This document shows positions 12,512-63,078 of a DNA stretch of 64,000 nt, in pieces. Positions within the stretch are counted from its first letter, which is position 1. Each line of letters begins with the position of its first letter. Location of the stretch: NCBI GenBank assembly GCA_964016885.1, contig OZ024741.1:327298001-327362000 (forward strand), written 5' to 3'. The stretch comes from Eledone cirrhosa. Lineage: Eukaryota. The position numbers were made by a program, and so were the translations under genes. The notes beneath the pieces are model-generated. The model was not told the origin of the DNA. It worked only from the letters and a program-made list of their open reading frames with translations, and did not search any database.

Positions 12512-15500
12512 ATGGCTATGCTAAGAGTAGGCTGTTTAAATGCGCGTGGCCTGGGCTCAACTTGGAAGCAAGCAATGCTTCTAAATGACCTCAGGTCACA
12601 ACGTATAGATGTGATGGTTATTTGCGAGGCCCGGATCAGCAACGTGCGACAGCTGGCCCCCACCTTTGATGACTTTGAGATGCACGCATCTCTCTGTCAG
12701 CCCGGAGGTGGGGGTGGAGTTGTCGTTCTGCTGCAAAAACATCTGGGTCTCGCAACACAGATGGTACATTTGGACCCGGAGGGTCGACTAGTGGTTCTGG
12801 ACCTTGGCAGTGGTAAAGGCGGAGCGTTTAGGTTGGTAGCCGCCTACGGCCCTTTCGGGTCAATGCGGCCGGACTTCTTCCATCGCCTGGAGACTTTTCT
12901 GGGGACGTCCCGCTCCTTGCTATTAGTGGGGGACTGGAATGGTATCCTAGATGCACGCTGGGACTACGTAGGGGCCTGCCCCGATAGAGAGGGGTGTAAT
13001 AGCCTCAAAGGGTTAATCGGTCGATTTGACCTGGCCGATAGATATCGACTAGATTTTCCGACTGCGCCAACCTGGACTTGGGCAAATCGTAGCGGATCAT
13101 CTAGGTCGTACCTAGATAGGTTCTTAGTTAGAATTAAGGATAAGGACTTTTTAAGTTGTCCAAAAATGCGCATGGTTGGCTATTCAGACCACAAATTAGT
13201 GACCTGCATGGTCAACCTTGACAGAACTCATAGACAGGGCCCCGGTTACTGGAAGCTCAACTTGTCCTTGCCGGCAAGTAGAGCCTACAGGAATCGGATT
13301 AGTACGTTAGTTAAGGAACGGTTGACTGAAGCGATCGTCAACAGCAGGTGGTGGGTATCTCTAAAGAGAGAGATTAGAGTAGTCTCGATAGAATTTAGTA
13401 AGGTTCTAGCTGCGGATAGGAATAGGAAGGAAAGGGAGCTAATAGATAGAGTAGAAGAGGCAATTAGAAGCGGCGACGTGGCGAGAGTGCTAGCGTCGAG
13501 AACGGCTTTGAGCCAGTTTTTCGACGCGAAGCACGAAGGCTGCGTTGTCCGAAGTAAAATACGTGCTCTAGGGAACGAGGGGACCAAAGCTGTTAGCTGG
13601 GCCCGCGTGACAGAGGCCAACAGTGGAACTAAATCCACCATCCGGTCTTTGCGAGACCTGGATGGACGGGCGATTCTTGAGCCTAAGCAGATGTGTGAGG
13701 CCTTTCAAAGGCACTTTGCCCGACTGTTCGGGAGGGGCGGGGGGCCGGTTGGGAACGTGGACTTCGGTCCATACCTCGACGGCCTGCCGCGCCTCTCGGA
13801 CAGGGAGGCGAAGTCCTGCGAGGAGCCGATTTCGGCCGCTGAGATAGAGGACGTGCAGAGCCAATGCGGCAAACGCAAATCCCCGGGTCTCGAAGGTCTT
13901 CCTTACGAATTATATCTAGCTATGCCGGACTTGTTCCCCGATCTCCTCGAGGCGGTCTACTGCAACTGGCAACAGAATGGGAGAATTCCCTGTACTGTGA
14001 CCAAGGGCGTAGTCACGCTAGTGAGGAAGGACGAGAACAAGGGGGACGAAATAAGTAACTTCAGGCCCATAACTCTGCTAAATACAGAGTTACAGATTTT
14101 GGCCAAGGTGCTAGCAAAGAGGTTGGCGCTTGTCGTGGGCAACCTGGTGGGAGATGCGCAGACATGCGCTATCCCGTCCAGGTCCATCCATGACAACCTC
14201 CACCTCATGCGATACATCATAGAGAGGGTTGGGAACGAACCCGGCTTTGGTGGGGCTCTGATCAACTTGGATCAATCTAAGGCGTTCGATAGGGTCGACC
14301 ATGGTTACCTGGATGCGGTGCTAGCGGCGGCAGGCTTCGGACCCGTTTTCAGGGGCTGGATCACTGCTATGCACAGCAGCCGCATCTGCTCTAGGGTCAA
14401 GGTGAACGGCTACCTCTCGGAGCCGTTCAAAATCGCGCGGTCCATCCGACAGGGGTGCCCTCTCTCCTCCCTTCTGTATGTGTTGACTCTCGAGCCACTA
14501 CTGCGGAAGTTGGAGTTGTTGCAGGGCATCCCTTTGGAACCGGGATTGCGGAAAGCGGTGTCGGCCTACGCCGATGACGTGACAGTAATGGTGTCGACGG
14601 CCTCCGAAATCGAGGCGGTCGGCACCTTACTGGAGGAGTACGAAAAGTTCACAGGGGCTAAGCTGAACCGGGACAAGTCGATCGGTTTGCAACTCGGCAC
14701 GTGGAGGGGCATACCGATGCCCTCCGATGGCGTCGTCGGACGCTGGACGGAGGGCCCGGTGAAGTTGCTCGGGGTCTGGTTCGGACCGGACCTCCAGGTG
14801 GAGAAAAACTGGGCGGAGGTTACGAACAGGGTGTTTGCACTGACCCAGAAGTGGGCCAGTTGCAAACTATCCCTGAAAGGTCGGGCGGAGGTGGCGAACA
14901 CCTACATAGCGTCCGTCATCTACTACCGCCTGACCGTAGTGCCCTGCCCAAGGGAAACCCTCACCAAGATGGAGCGCGCGCTCTTCCAATTCCTTTGGAA
15001 GAGGCGGGCTCCTATGGTGAGGAGATCCATCTGCTGTCAACACCCTTCGAAAGGAGGGCTGGGGATGCCGTGGCTAATGATGCGTAAACACGCATTAAGG
15101 CTACGGCACCTCTACGTATTCCTCACCGGACAACCGGTGTGGGCCTCGTTTGTGAGGCGAACCTTTCCCAGACTCGTCTCACTCACCGAGCTGCAATCCT
15201 GGGTCAAGCAAAGACCGAGAAAACTGGGCGCCTGGCACACTGAGTGTGCCCAGGCGCTCACCGCCCTCTGGCAGGCGGATCCGGTTATCAGTGGAGACTC
15301 CACCGCAACATTCTATAGAGGGCTGGTACGCAGCAGGTGCGACGACGCCCTCGGAGAAGCCCTAGACATGGAGGAGGACGAACTGGCCAGCCTGTTCGGT
15401 AGGACATTCAGCCCGGGACCTATGGACAACTTCCAGAAGTCCCTGGCCTGGCAGTGCTACCGAGGGGCTTTACCCGTTCGAGAAAGGCTCTACAGACACG

Positions 15501-15949
15501 GGCGCCCGGGTAGGGACCCCGCCAAAAAGATCTGTCCCAGATGCGTGTGCGACGAGGAAACCGTTGCACACGCATTGGTACACTGCTCGGGCGTAGCCGA
15601 TCTGTGGGGCTATGTCGAACAACTGCTGTCAAGGGTGGAACCGATCCGGTTGACCACCGAGTCTATTGTAATGATCAAGCCGCCTCCCCCCTTCAAAGAT
15701 GAAGCAGAGGCGGTGTTTCTGTGCGTAATAGCCATGGCGAAAGAGGTTGTATGGTGGACGCGTCTGAAAGGACTGAGGTCAGGCACCTTTCTCTCTGGCC
15801 AACAACTGGTCCGTTTCTTCCGATATCATTTCGGAAGAAGGATCAGGATGGAGAGAGAGGTGCTGCACCCCAGCCGTTTCTATGAAAGATGGGTGAAAGT
15901 GGCGAGAATGGCCCGTGTGAATGGGCCTTCACTCTACATCAGACTATAG
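12512..15949 (+). CDS. Tx1 ORF2: AP endonuclease + reverse transcriptase + C-terminal zinc finger
   Basis: LNARGL, GDWN, YLDRF, SDH (APE); WKLN, FRPITLLN, DQSKAFDRV, RQGCPLS, YADD, KGGLG (RT); CPRC..HALVHC. First ATG at 12512; frame open from 12488. Confidence 0.96.
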   Translation: MAMLRVGCLNARGLGSTWKQAMLLNDLRSQRIDVMVICEARISNVRQLAPTFDDFEMHASLCQPGGGGGVVVLLQKHLGLATQMVHLDPEGRLVVLDLGSGKGGAFRLVAAYGPFGSMRPDFFHRLETFLGTSRSLLLVGDWNGILDARWDYVGACPDREGCNSLKGLIGRFDLADRYRLDFPTAPTWTWANRSGSSRSYLDRFLVRIKDKDFLSCPKMRMVGYSDHKLVTCMVNLDRTHRQGPGYWKLNLSLPASRAYRNRISTLVKERLTEAIVNSRWWVSLKREIRVVSIEFSKVLAADRNRKERELIDRVEEAIRSGDVARVLASRTALSQFFDAKHEGCVVRSKIRALGNEGTKAVSWARVTEANSGTKSTIRSLRDLDGRAILEPKQMCEAFQRHFARLFGRGGGPVGNVDFGPYLDGLPRLSDREAKSCEEPISAAEIEDVQSQCGKRKSPGLEGLPYELYLAMPDLFPDLLEAVYCNWQQNGRIPCTVTKGVVTLVRKDENKGDEISNFRPITLLNTELQILAKVLAKRLALVVGNLVGDAQTCAIPSRSIHDNLHLMRYIIERVGNEPGFGGALINLDQSKAFDRVDHGYLDAVLAAAGFGPVFRGWITAMHSSRICSRVKVNGYLSEPFKIARSIRQGCPLSSLLYVLTLEPLLRKLELLQGIPLEPGLRKAVSAYADDVTVMVSTASEIEAVGTLLEEYEKFTGAKLNRDKSIGLQLGTWRGIPMPSDGVVGRWTEGPVKLLGVWFGPDLQVEKNWAEVTNRVFALTQKWASCKLSLKGRAEVANTYIASVIYYRLTVVPCPRETLTKMERALFQFLWKRRAPMVRRSICCQHPSKGGLGMPWLMMRKHALRLRHLYVFLTGQPVWASFVRRTFPRLVSLTELQSWVKQRPRKLGAWHTECAQALTALWQADPVISGDSTATFYRGLVRSRCDDALGEALDMEEDELASLFGRTFSPGPMDNFQKSLAWQCYRGALPVRERLYRHGRPGRDPAKKICPRCVCDEETVAHALVHCSGVADLWGYVEQLLSRVEPIRLTTESIVMIKPPPPFKDEAEAVFLCVIAMAKEVVWWTRLKGLRSGTFLSGQQLVRFFRYHFGRRIRMEREVLHPSRFYERWVKVARMARVNGPSLYIRL

Positions 15950-18317: not shown

Positions 18318-18353
18318 TCTTCTGATGAAGGACTAGTGTCCGAAACGTTAAGA
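18318..18353 (+). ncRNA. Minimal PLE-type hammerhead ribozyme
   Basis: tctt-CTGATGA-a-ggac tagt gtcc-GAAACGTT-aaga; stem III reduced to palindromic ACGT. Confidence 0.8.
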
Positions 18354-20081: not shown

Positions 20082-23000
20082 CGAAACATAAGTCAATTGT
20101 GAACTCATAATCCTTTATTTACCGCTATATATATATTTCGATGATACCCATTGTATAGCTATGACCTCATCCGGCAGTTAGTAAGTTCTTAGACATGCCA
20201 GCTCTGGGTTTTTGCTTTTGATGGTTTTAGAGCCTTCGGACATATGAACTTGTTAGGGATAAATTAATGTTGTCAGCAGGAATAATTTTAGTTTTAATTG
20301 GTCAGTTTGTACATGCTAGTAGGATTGGTATGTGACCTCAAAGTGGTCGGTGGTGTTGTAAAGTTCAAACCGTCAGTTTCTTATGATTGATTTTCATTCC
20401 TGGTTAGATATATATTCAAATGAAATTCGATACTACAGGGCATTCTTAAATTGAGGAATTTATGTGGGGTAATAATACTGAAAATTATGGTTAGATTCAA
20501 ATACTTAGAAAGTTTACATATAAAGAAAAATTATTGTTTAGACTAGACAAAAGTAGGGTGTGATACATATATTCACAGCAATAGCTTAGTGACTTTAGAG
20601 ATTAGGCGATTCCCTTAGTACAGACATATACAGGTACACGCACCCACTCATACTTGTATACCTCTGGATGCGTGTGTATGTCTATATACACATGTGCATT
20701 CATACAAGAGAGCATACACAAATATACTCTTAAACATACACTCGAACATTTTTCAAATGCAACCTGGGGTATTAGTATATCGTTGCGTTCACATAAGTGC
20801 GTACATTCACCTAATCCCGGTATACACACACAACGCACGGTTGCGGGCACACTGTTTGTTAGGATAATAGCTCCTCTTGTGTGGGCGACTCCCTTGGGGA
20901 GCGGTATATCGGTTTCAAAAAACGTGGTTGAGCTGACTCCTAAACAGTAGAGTACCTGGTGGACAATCCACTTTGGGGACCACAAACTATGGGTGGCTGT
21001 TGTTGCCCATTGGTCATTGGTACGGGGTGTAGGGAGCCCTACATGGGGGGGGGGCTTTCAATTTTGTGTATCTCGGCAGTTCATTAGAGCTTGCCCAGTA
21101 TGTGAGGAGCTACGGGAGTGGACCTATGTGGGAGGTGTGTGTGAAAATGCACGGGGCATTGCTATCCTATAATAGGGGTGCCGAAATTTCTGCTAAGGGC
21201 TGGTCGGAGGAAGTAGAGGTGGGAAAAGGGTGTTGAAGGGAGGCCGTAACCGGGGTTTATCCATATAGCTTGAGGACAGTTCCCGTCCTAAGTTGTCTGC
21301 AGGTGCCAAATAAGGCGGCCCTTCTGTTTAATAGCTTGGTTCCGCCATGAAGTATCTCGAGTGTCTCACTAAGACAGAGGTTGCAAATACCAGACCCACC
21401 TGTGTCTGGGCGAACCTTTCTAACTACGGACCAGATCAAAGAGTGCGGGGTCCCTTCAACTTTGACTTCCAGATCAATTCAGAAAGGGCCGTACATTTCC
21501 TTTTTTCTATTCTGTTAAAGGAGTGGCGGTGGTTATACCACCTATCATTGAAGTTCGTCGCCGTGGATCCTATGTAGTTGTGCTCCGAGTTAGGGGTTGT
21601 GACCCTGCACCTGTAGACTACGTTTTTCGTCTTACATTCATTACTAAGGGGGCATAGTGATGGGTTTCTGCAATTGCCTGACTTTTTAAGTCCCTGCACA
21701 TGTACCGTGGGATTACCATCAGGTGGGGTTGGCTGGCTAACCGCCGCATTCAGCACATGCTCGTTGGATTGCGCTGTGCTAGTTGGGCCTGCCCGGGGTC
21801 TGGGGCGTCTCGTGTGCTGGTTCCGTTGGGTGGCTCCAGGGTTTACGGTGGTATTAGAAGCGGTGAGCCTACTCCTATTTATACCGGCTATGTGCTGGGC
21901 TACGGAATGTGTGGTTGAGTAGGATAGTTTCAGCATATGCCTGTTGAATACTTTATGGTACCTGTGGGCCCTAGGGAAACATTTATCCACTACTCTTAAG
22001 AATGTTTTAGCCAGGCTGGTACGTAGACCCAGCGAGTACGGGGGGTTATACCATGTGACCTTCCTGGTCCTATTCCTGCGGGGTAGTTGGGTGTCCGTCG
22101 TGGTCCATTGCGGGATTGTTCACAGCTCAGGTCGAGCTCCGTTGGTGTTACACAGGTGTGTAGAGCGGGTAGCGTTCGTTGTTCGGTCACTATCAAGCGT
22201 GTTATATGGGCCTACCGTGGGGCTATAAATCTGCGCGGTGCGGTGTCCCTACTCAATGAGGGTTCGGTGGGCGGTGAGGCAGGGCGGGGCTGTCTATGCT
22301 CCGCACTACAGTGGTCATCAGTGTTGTAGGTATTAGACCGGTGGTGTATGCAGGACCTTCTACCGGGGGTGGTGGAGGTTAGGGGTCTGGGCGTATTACT
22401 ACTGGTCACCGTGGTATTAGGTGGGCGATTCATGCCCCTGAGGGTATTGGCCCGGGGCACCCTTGGGTCATCTAGATCATGTCCCTTAGGGTTATAGCTG
22501 ATCCTATGGCTATGGGACGCCTTAGCTAGCGCTGAGTTATAATAATCAGCATTACTATTGAAGATCTTTTTATTGGCAGACAAGTTAGAGATCCTGTCAG
22601 AGACACTCTTAACTACGGCCTTAACTATAGATCTAGGCTGATTGATATACACCAGCTTCTCATTGGGTTTATGATATGGGTGGTGTGGCTTGGTGTTGAG
22701 GTTGAGGGTGGTGTCCAGGAAATTCACTACTTTTCTATTGGGTCCCATCTCTACTTTAAGTCGTACCTTGCTAAAAAAGTGACTAATTTTCCTCTTCATA
22801 TTTTCGACCATTTGGTGCTGTGGGCCACGACGGTGAAGAGGGCGTCGTCTCTGTACAGTTTGCCACCCAGTTTGGGTATTTTGCTCCTGATCTTGTAGAA
22901 TATGTATATCCCAACCAGGTCCGTTAGCTGGAGGGAGTCACTGGAAACCATTGTGATGTCAAAATTATTTGGCCAGTCACTCCGGGTCCATAGGTCCCCA

Positions 23001-23197
23001 CCGAATCGGATCAGGGTCTTTTTGACGGCGTGTATGATTCGGACCTCTTCGCGCGGTAGGTCTGTCCTATTCATCGCGAATATGAGGGCATTGTTCAGGA
23101 CTATGGGCGAGATAGAGGAGTAGTAATTGTTGATGTCTAGTTGTATGAAGCTAGTCGTATGTTTGTCAGGTAAAGAAGTAAACCAGTCCAGCACCAT
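20078..23197 (-). mobile_element. Penelope-like element, 5'-truncated and decayed, with 3' HHR-bearing end
   Basis: RT (QLDINNYYSSI, LYRDD, FLDTTLNL, YHKPN), linker (FPRAHRYHKVFNRH..SYS), GIY-YIG (NC..CPL..C, VVYRC..YIG, CNLCLSE); degenerate HHR at 20120-20180 (CGGATGA). That the 3' region belongs to the same element is inferred. Confidence 0.88.
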
Positions 23198-23292
23198 ATA
23201 TATATGTTTAATATGTATATATGTTTAATATAGATAAGCTTATGTATTGAGTACCCTACTTACTGTGGTTACCCCCGATTGAACCCGGGTTA

Positions 23293-30001: not shown

Positions 30002-30194
30002 TATTTGTTTATTGAAAAAAACAAAGATTCAATACAATAGGTCTGTTTGGGAACAGGTTTTGAATGGACCAATCAAGATAGTAATATAGTAATCAAGATA
30101 GTAAAATAGATCAACGGTTTAATTCTCCTACTCAACAACCAAAAACATAAAACAAAATATAAGTGCCTATAATGCATATAAATGTAAAAAAACC

Positions 30195-30668
30195 ATGAGT
30201 ATACCACCAGTACATCAAACTAACCCTAATATCTCCTCAGATACAGGATTCACGAAAAGTTGTAACTGTAGAAACAAGGCAAACTGTCCGTTAAAAGGAA
30301 ATTGCCTTGTTAATAACATAGTATATAAATGTAAAGTTAACACTAAGGACTCAATTTATTCATATATAGGAGCTACCTCTAACAATTTTAAGGTAAGATT
30401 TAATACCCACAAACATAGTTTTAAAAATGCCGCACTAGCTAATACAACATCTCTAGCTGAAATAATTAATAGTTATAGAAAGAGGAATATAGAATATGAC
30501 CTGACCTGGAGTGTGCTCAAAAGGGCCACCCCTTATCAAAATAGTAGAAATGAATGTAGATTATGTTCCCAAGAACTTTTCGAAATGATGAAATCTAAGG
30601 ACATCCTATTAAATAAGCGACAGGAATTAATAATATCGTGTAATCATAAACTGAGAAAAAACCTTTAA
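30195..30668 (+). pseudogene. GIY-YIG endonuclease domain of Penelope polyprotein (truncated fragment)
   Basis: CNCRNKANCPLKGNC, IVYKC..YIGAT..FKVRFNTHK.SF, CRLC..E, LLNKRQE...C.H; upstream degenerate FS-YS linker shows it is the tail of a longer ORF. Confidence 0.9.
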
Positions 30669-60819: not shown

Positions 60820-60824
<5 letters not shown>

Positions 60825-61210
60825 TAATAAAAGGAATTCCAACTTTGTCTGATTTACTCGTTTTGTTTACAATCCTTTAAAATGTATAATGATATTATAA
60901 TGAAATAGTATGGTAGAATATTAAATGTCAAATATTAATTGAAAAAGTACTTTCATACTTTCGCAATCTTCAGGTTCATATTCAGTGGTGACGGTCAAGT
61001 TTGCAATTTTCGACAGTTGAAAATTGCAAACTTGACTGTCACCACTGAATATGAACCTGAAGATTGCGAAATCATGAAAGTACTTGTTCAATTAACACTT
61101 AACATTTAATAGTCTACCATACAATTTCATTATAATATCATTATAAATGTTAAAAGATTGTAAATAAAACGTGTAAATCAGACAAAGTTGGAATTCCTTT
61201 TATTAATATA
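60820..61210. mobile_element. Foldback element (~190-bp diverged arms) with two divergent HHRs
   Basis: Palindrome centred at ~61015; HHRs at 60940-60978 (-) and 61052-61090 (+). Confidence 0.85.
61052..61090 (+). ncRNA. Minimal hammerhead ribozyme
   Basis: tgaac-CTGAAGA-ttgcgaaatcat-GAAAGTACTT-gttca; palindromic AGTACT; mirror copy has stem II tgc-gaaa-gta. Confidence 0.72.
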
Positions 61211-62337: not shown

Positions 62338-62425
<88 letters not shown>

Positions 62426-62429
<4 letters not shown>

Positions 62430-63044
62430 AATATAGTGAATTTTGCAATACACTCTATGCTTAATTAAAAGCTTTTTGAAGACCTTACGCTATTGATTTA
62501 GAGTAGTGACAGTCTCACTTACTTTAAATTTTCAGCCAACAGTGGGAGATAAAGCTGACAGAGCTCTGGTTCGTACTATTTGGTACTTATCAAAGCTAAG
62601 TACTCCACCTGTTTGATGAAAATCATGAATGTTTGATTCTTATAGATTTGTAGTAATAATCAGGAACTGATTATACACTATATATACATTCATATGTATA
62701 TCGTTATTTCAGACCACCAATTCTAATTTTCAATTTCTGCTTGACCGGCAACCGCTCTGTATAATCAGTTCCTGATTATTACTAGAATTCTATAAGAATC
62801 AAACATTCATGATTTTCATCAAACAGGTGGAGTACTTAGCTTTGATAAGTACCAAATAGTACGAAACAGACCTCTGTCAGCTTTATCTCCCCCTGTTTGG
62901 TGAAAATTTAAAGTAAGTGAGACTGTCACTACTCTAAAACAATAGCGTAAGTTCCTCAAAATGCTTTTAATTAAGCATACAGTGTATTGCAAAATACACT
63001 ATATTTACATTCATATGTATATCGCTATTTCAGAGTACCAATTC

Positions 63045-63051
<7 letters not shown>
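62426..63051 (+). mobile_element. Non-coding HHR element: inverted copy plus terminally redundant ~321-nt monomer
   Basis: 62426-62677 mirrors ~62758-63010; 62675-62730 repeats directly at 62996-63051; (TA)n flanks. Confidence 0.85.
62838..62882 (+). ncRNA. Hammerhead ribozyme with U3-A8 core variant
   Basis: agct-TTGATAA-gtac caaata gtac-GAAACAG acct CTGTC-agct; all three stems pair, GUC site; mirror copy at 62553-62597 (-) has the same TTGATAA. Confidence 0.75.

Positions 63052-63078
<27 letters not shown>

Follow-up and report, generated by a model that had tools for sequence, protein, structure and literature searches.

A U3-A8 hammerhead core in a 321-nt retrozyme-type repeat family of Eledone cirrhosa, with apparent repeated switching of the 3-8 pair

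Does a hammerhead motif with TTGATAA in place of CTGATGA represent a private, inactivated copy of an ordinary ribozyme, or is it the normal state of the repeat family to which it belongs? The question is raised by an inverted repeat near the end of the window (the whole 64,000-nt stretch of Eledone cirrhosa DNA analyzed here, contig OZ024741.1, positions 327,298,001 to 327,362,000). In the preliminary description both arms of this repeat were said to have U3 and A8 in place of C3 and G8 in the hammerhead core, and the element was assigned to a variant-core retrozyme family.

The insertion occupies positions 62413-63051 and consists, in this order, of an inverted arm, a 58-nt partial unit and a full 321-nt unit, with a (TA)n target microsatellite on the left (62375-62425) and on the right (63052-63078). 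The full unit (q1-321; 62731-63051, plus strand) is non-coding, with 33% GC, and no stop-to-stop frame of 120 aa or more was found overlapping it. The preceding unit is 5'-truncated (q264-321; 62673-62730, plus strand) and forms a partial tandem with the full one, being identical to 62994-63051 at 54 of 58 positions. The 321-nt period of this direct repeat agrees with the monomer proposed earlier, and tandem arrays at other loci, of up to three units, have a period of 320-321 nt; the redundancy itself, however, is 58 bp and not the 56 bp first given. Nor is it a feature of the family, since the leading partial units of other copies may be as short as about 25 nt or as long as about 300 nt, and the length seen here marks an incidental truncation point. 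The inverted arm (q28-292; 62413-62677, minus strand) is also 5'-truncated. Its 265 nt are 94% identical to the other arm (94% complementary as an inverted repeat) and end at the short 3' end, without a tail, and its outer edge grades into (TA)n near 62426. Both arms share a 5-nt microhomology at the inversion junction (62673-62677). The plus arm ends with a 26-29-nt "tail" (63023-63051), which lies between the two preferred 3' ends of the family, q292 and q318-321.

The plus copy carries a type I hammerhead within a long rod (62811-62908). In its fold three helices surround the conserved core; stems I, II and III are of 4 bp each, stem I is open, and a GUC site is present, as first described. 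Stem I is formed by 62838-62841 and 62879-62882, U3 is at 62842 and A8 at 62847, stem II spans 62849-62862, GAAA 62863-62866 and helix III 62866-62877; cleavage is predicted after C17 at 62878. The fold was more stable than in shuffled sequences (z = -3.45 for 86 nt, with none of 200 shuffles as good, and z = -5.63 for 131 nt). The second hammerhead copy (62527-62624, minus strand) also has TTGATAA, with U3 at 62593 and A8 at 62588, and its helix III palindrome is intact. The claim that stems were intact in both arms holds for the plus copy but not for this one, in which A15.1>C at 62569 gives GAAC instead of GAAA and breaks the A15.1-U16.1 core pair; on this evidence the minus-arm hammerhead is likely to be impaired. 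The plus arm has a private G>C change of its own at 62871, in the helix III loop, which destroys the 12-nt helix III palindrome kept by the family. G was present at this position in about 99% of contig depth, a figure drawn from contigs of four runs of one study and informative about family variants only.

The variant core is not private to this locus. A DNA search of the 3.0-Gb assembly with the 321-nt unit gave at least 97 matches from the 40 scored of 2,625 candidates; the best of the matches scored were 95-97% identical, and many of them were in tandem or inverted pairs. An exact 25-mer containing U3-A8 matched the genome 77 times and its CTGATGA version 0 times, contradicting the view that the family consensus is CTGATGA. 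When positions 3, 7 and 8 were left free, 795 matches were obtained; of the 100 that were listed, 98 had U3-A8 when read by eye. Another subfamily with U3-A8, distinguished by its stem II (GCAT-stem), gave 424 matches to a pattern in which position 3 was fixed, and A8 was present in 98 of the 100 listed. All these counts refer to arms and tandem units, not to insertions. U3-A8 is the fixed state of the subfamily to which the 321-nt unit belongs and not a private mutation.

The two nucleotides are also kept together in genomic copies, as had been anticipated. One shared pattern matched 573 copies with U3-A8, 317 with C3-G8, 8 with U3-G8 and 10 with C3-A8, so that 890 of 908 have the Watson-Crick 3-8 pair of a type I hammerhead. 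The 18 mismatched copies arise in both backgrounds at about 1-2% per site, which is the level expected from decay after insertion since copies diverge by 2.4-3.3% from the majority of their subfamily. Those that were placed in the trees described below are tips.

Related families were reached through the 3'-terminal 21-mer of the unit, which has 21,050 matches in the genome. One subfamily of about 318 nt has a C3-G8 core and is about 85% identical to the 321-nt unit. A homogeneous sister family of 310-312 nt, about 65% identical to the 321-nt unit, also has a C3-G8 hammerhead and forms arrays of more than ten units; it is probably the youngest member and probably accounts for the bulk of the 21,050 shared-motif matches. 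This sister retrozyme was seen at L092-L108 and L114-L120, with a canonical C3-G8 core in long tandem and inverted arrays. An older sister lineage gave 163 matches, and among the 22 of 30 loci in which the core was read there were 12 with U3-A8, 9 with C3-G8 and 1 with C3-A8. In this old lineage (L190-L218) the base of stem II has an A10.1-A11.1 mismatch common to the U3-A8 copies, where the old C3-G8 copies are paired. At L258 (plus strand, at minus-numbered scan positions 8649 and 8967) another U3-A8 subfamily has a third, fully paired stem II sequence. A tandem and inverted repeat of 592-593 nt with TTGATAA (L219:721-2294) was considered as a relative; it has no blastn similarity to the 321-nt unit, the pattern found no GAAA strand in canonical order after its TTGATAA, and it was treated as apparently unrelated.

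The history of the 3-8 pair was followed in trees of 72 of 166 units (all members of the old and early groups and random subsamples of the large young groups), from which columns 3 and 8 were removed; dropping five mismatched rows left a 67-unit tree. A quick tree that had placed the outgroup inside the U3-A8 group was rejected, because a constrained tree scored higher, and more careful trees were used instead. On the 67-unit tree the 3-8 state changes three times; all three changes are forced by supported branches and are present in every bootstrap interval. A single U3-A8 clade was rejected (p-AU 0.001). With the hammerhead rod removed four changes were obtained, three of them forced, and a single U3-A8 clade was again rejected (p-AU 2.5e-7). 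The subfamily of the window lies in a young U3-A8 clade nested within a C3-G8 subfamily (support 100/99, and 76/76 without the rod). These trees indicate that the 3-8 pair has switched between C-G and U-A at least three times across related subfamilies. Which way the deeper switches went depends on where the tree is rooted, and the whole-unit tree and the tree of non-hammerhead columns disagree within the old lineage, so that some copies there may be mosaics.

Joint changes were not limited to the 3-8 pair. Between the C3-G8 and the early U3-A8 subfamily, which are separated by about 20 differences, 18 substitutions include three structure pairs changed on both sides, the 3-8 pair among them (p = 0.03 within the hammerhead region and 0.003 over q30-285). 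Two U3-A8 subfamilies are separated by 16 substitutions, and 8 of these belong to four compensated pairs of stems II and III (p = 2e-4 by permutation for the hammerhead region and 2.5e-5 for q30-285). In both stems, compensated change went on after the switch. The subfamily differences leave all nine invariant core positions untouched. One compensated pair sits inside the helix III tetraloop and can pair only between two hammerheads, that is in a dimer. In an alignment of 13 distinct, hand-picked copies from four subfamilies 96.5% of the cells were paired, and nine pairs changed on both sides as against one or two in slid controls, a count inflated by the relatedness of the sequences. DNA template switching can produce paired changes in a hairpin without selection; this does not apply to the 3-8 pair because that pair is not in a hairpin. 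The hammerhead of the 321-nt family appears to be under structural selection.

As to what kind of element this is, the family resembles the metazoan non-LTR retrozymes as described in PMC7229834 and 10.64898/2026.07.22.740005: its tandem unit measures about 320 nt, is low in GC, non-coding and self-paired and contains one type I hammerhead, and the family co-occurs with Penelope-like elements (PLEs). At other loci the unit occurs in tandem within the 170-400-nt size range of that class, each unit with its type I hammerhead, and its GC is below the 45% limit; the window copy itself has one full unit and one partial one. Folded as a circle, the 321-nt monomer is predicted to be 59% paired (z = -5.8 against 40 shuffles). 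The family differs from these retrozymes in its U3-A8 core, in a 4-bp helix III set in a 12-nt palindrome, and in consisting mostly of dispersed short inverted insertions with a tail. It is distinct from the minimal hammerheads of PLEs, in which helix III is absent or 1-2 bp and stem II is 7-8 bp, since both measure 4 bp here, and from autonomous PLEs, since no reverse transcriptase (RT) plus GIY-YIG reading frame was found in the unit or as its upstream body. At the Rfam gathering score there were no hits in five loci, with C3-G8 and U3-A8 members alike; the variant core is therefore not the reason for the miss. As to a putative tertiary contact between loop II and stem I, the plus copy aligned end to end against HH9, with matching bulge and loop II letters, at 19.6 bits compared with a gathering score of 52. 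The earlier assignment to a retrozyme-type family is supported; the wider family, however, does show up in CUGANGA searches, by way of its C3-G8 sister subfamilies.

Secondary-structure predictions, which leave out tertiary contacts, point to a hammerhead that is inactive when alone. In 38 copies of the main subfamily a single hammerhead was predicted to adopt an inactive fold with a median probability of 0.98, the active fold lying 2.9 kcal/mol higher; in the inactive fold helix III pairs with stem I and with core positions 3-5. This preference was stronger in the GCAT subfamily (0.99; 7.0 kcal/mol) and weaker in the C3-G8 subfamily (0.53; 1.2 kcal/mol). When two copies were folded together, the optimum was a double hammerhead in 31 of 38 main-subfamily copies, 11 of 11 GCAT copies and 15 of 24 C3-G8 copies. 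Four natural tandem arrays were also folded whole; in one of them the double hammerhead dominated (0.96), in another it was minor (0.14-0.16) and in the remaining two it was not favoured. Behaviour of this kind, monomer-off and dimer-on, is described as established for animal type I hammerheads (PMC4209133, PMC7229834), and, as in amphibian retrozymes, the palindromic helix III of the 321-nt family suggests cleavage as a dimer.

The anatomy of the insertions was surveyed in 201 arms at 109 loci, after removal of known overlaps and with a few segmental duplicates remaining. The 3' ends fall into two classes, 93 at q315-321 and 75 at q286-298, with 33 elsewhere, and 87 of the 93 tailed ends run into (TA)n. 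Among 79 inverted pairs, 50 had two classifiable ends: 45 combined one short and one tailed end, five had two tails and none had two short ends. Arms longer than one unit numbered 91 of 201. No peak of 5' ends was seen at the cleavage site, only 4 of 201 lying within 5 nt of it, which suggests that cut linear RNA leaves no mark on the insertions; this count is biased by the selection of loci, which were those with full-length or hammerhead matches. The partial tandem, the inverted 5'-truncated copy, the tail at one end and the microsatellite target are all features of PLE-mobilised insertions. Craig et al. 2021 (PMC8557442) described this pattern for EN+ PLEs, and Frangieh et al. 2024 (PMC11167929) described initiation at two internal sites by an anole PLE in vitro. 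The AT-rich or microsatellite targets and the two 3' ends are also held in common with EN+ PLEs, as portrayed in these two papers, whereas the 321-nt unit lacks an RT or GIY-YIG reading frame and has a tail of 26-29 nt, not 30-40 nt. Judged by its anatomy, the 321-nt family appears to be a non-autonomous retrozyme with PLE-type insertions, likely to be copied by Penelope-like retrotransposons.

The explanation we favour, with a probability of about 0.65 for the whole of it, is that the window copy is one aged insertion of an approximately 320-nt non-coding repeat family copied in trans by the RT and endonuclease of a PLE; that the family hammerhead would self-cleave, U3-A8 being a working substitute for C3-G8, and would cut multimers into units that can close into circles; and that U3-A8 arose on the branch leading to the subfamily of the window, the pair having switched elsewhere in the lineage as well. 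Tandem copies would be transcribed, and adjacent hammerheads would pair through the palindromic helix III and cut after GUC. Units cut from multimeric transcripts would close into circles, in which the lone hammerhead, with helix III invading its core, is predicted to be inactive and would protect the monomer circle. The PLE protein would nick both strands of a (TA)n run, and reverse transcription would start at two internal sites, q292 and q318, one for each strand, and read through the cleavage site and the unit junction. The two cDNAs would then be joined at a microhomology, and in the resulting inverted structure only one of the arms would have a tail.

Since the plus run of the window continues across the cleavage site and also across the unit junction, its template may have been a circle or an uncleaved multimer; an uncleaved multimer explains the read-through as well as a circle does. 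The hammerhead could be functional and selected and yet produce no circle on the way to insertion, uncleaved tandem transcripts being the template and cutting serving only to release or turn over the RNA. Such a course fits the small number of 5' ends near the cleavage site and the existence of tandem source arrays, and also the in vitro results with the anole PLE, where hammerhead mutants are described as leaving insertion unchanged and unprocessed RNA as the main substrate (PMC11167929). On the other hand, retrozymes of the same size are reported to accumulate as circles in coral, mussel and axolotl (PMC7229834), and strong, continued selection on the hammerhead of a non-coding element is easier to explain if cutting lies on the replication path. 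We consider this variant unlikely.

Two further readings are given little weight. Instead of forming an independent non-autonomous element, the units might be truncated terminal repeats (pLTRs) left by an unsampled autonomous PLE, since their anatomy is identical to that of truncated PLE insertions and the U3-A8 motifs of Schistosoma are described as mostly remnants of this kind (PMC4209133). Arms that extend past q1, however, continue into the end of the previous unit, for up to three units here and more than ten in the sister family, and the reading-frame lists of the flanks contained PLE fragments at some loci, none readable as the upstream body of the unit, which makes this origin improbable. 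It is also hard to believe that the U3-A8 core is dead, or nearly so, and was carried along with a successful master copy. With the number of differences separating the C3-G8 and early U3-A8 subfamilies any two changes on that branch co-occur by descent, and a single hammerhead is predicted to misfold. Against this, both changes in the core fall precisely on positions 3 and 8 and spare the nine invariant positions, the switch recurs, compensated stem changes continue after it, and U3-A8 hammerheads are reported to be active in vitro (PMC3088659, citing Przybilski and Hammann 2007).

The favoured explanation can be extended, tentatively and with more doubt than conviction, to a 3-8 pair that acts as an evolvable dial flipping between C-G and U-A, combined with a folding switch that silences the monomer circle and allows cutting by paired hammerheads only, U3-A8 being present also in unrelated elements of the same genome, among them an intact two-ORF PLE that is a possible helper. 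If this were so, the genome would contain an ordered series of natural mutants bearing on hammerhead catalysis and on the way parasitic circles tune their cutting rate.

The components of this picture are not new. Perreault et al. 2011 (PMC3088659) reported natural covariation from C3-G8 to U3-A8, and Cervera and de la Pena 2014 (PMC4209133) described about 1,300 minimal U3-A8 hammerheads tied to Schistosoma PLEs, with a dedicated descriptor; the preliminary description therefore overstated the rarity of U3-A8, and it mentions neither the PLE-type insertion anatomy nor the recurrent switching. Animal retrozymes, those of mussels included, were defined by Cervera and de la Pena 2020 (PMC7229834) and are derived from PLEs according to Li, Clavereau and Pollet 2026 (10.64898/2026.07.22.740005); neither U3-A8 nor U3A8 occurs as a string in the main text of these two papers. 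The hammerheads of the Schistosoma Cercyon PLEs, as presented in PMC4209133, share with the 321-nt family the U3-A8 covariation, the PLE context and the frequent occurrence of two motifs on opposite strands, 100-700 bp apart. They are, however, minimal, with little or no helix III and a 7-8-bp stem II, and lie in terminal repeats and remnants, whereas the hammerhead of the 321-nt family is canonical in size, lies in a non-coding tandem unit and has a switching history that can be traced. In the same way, the account of Perreault et al. (PMC3088659) contains several isolated U3-A8 examples, and here there is a lineage in which the pair switched repeatedly and which has more than a thousand matches. 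Our search of the openly accessible literature turned up no description either of this family or of recurrent switching of the 3-8 pair. Retrozymes, the PLE anatomy and the U3-A8 variant have each been published; the repeated switching and the tail rule are the part added here.

Repeated joint switching of the 3-8 pair in one traceable lineage constitutes comparative evidence that a retrozyme hammerhead is selected, and bears on the question whether retrozyme ribozymes matter for PLE-driven spread. The rule of one short and one tailed end (45/50) provides genomic support for two-site internal priming, so far known in vitro for one anole PLE. The natural subfamilies supply matched C3-G8 and U3-A8 constructs for kinetic comparison, and over a thousand motifs of this genome would escape surveys based on CUGANGA alone.

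A possible source of the copying machinery came from one copy of the 321-nt family that sits within a fragment of an abundant PLE. This PLE has many intact 775-aa frames behind an overlapping 409-aa frame (L252-L259, for example L252:4970-8433 on the minus strand, and L220). The 775-aa frame, with RT, CxxC and GIY-YIG regions, matched the Pfam models for RT (E-value 1.5e-6, just under the curated cut-off) and GIY-YIG (3.5e-6), and from the CxxC linker the element may be Neptune-like. In all eight long loci examined, a U3-A8 hammerhead motif (TTGAAAA) whose helix III is palindromic was present in the 3' region. The element inserts in (TA)n and has two 3' ends, separated by about 65 nt; its last 7 nt are those of the 321-nt unit, and no wider similarity to three test units was found beyond them. 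It is therefore no more than a candidate helper of the 321-nt family. PLE-like endonuclease and reverse transcriptase fragments are also present in the window itself, at 30123-30668 (plus strand) and 21436-23224 (minus strand). The PLE of 30123-30668 belongs to a young, abundant family with frames of up to 834 aa; it was rejected as a helper, since the 1 kb after the reading frame contained no canonical hammerhead or shared terminal motif in 30 loci.

Other repeats were observed in the window. At 60820-61210 a second inverted repeat, with 195-nt arms of 92% identity that adjoin (TA)n, contains a degenerate CTGAAGA...GAAA motif and resembles a truncated PLE-type insertion of a different family. 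At 18322 (plus strand) a repeat family seen also in L002 and L045 has a canonical hammerhead motif with C3-G8, in which helix III is short and palindromic. A long non-LTR retrotransposon with two frames (597 aa and 1153 aa) occupies 10694-15949 on the plus strand and appears nearly intact.
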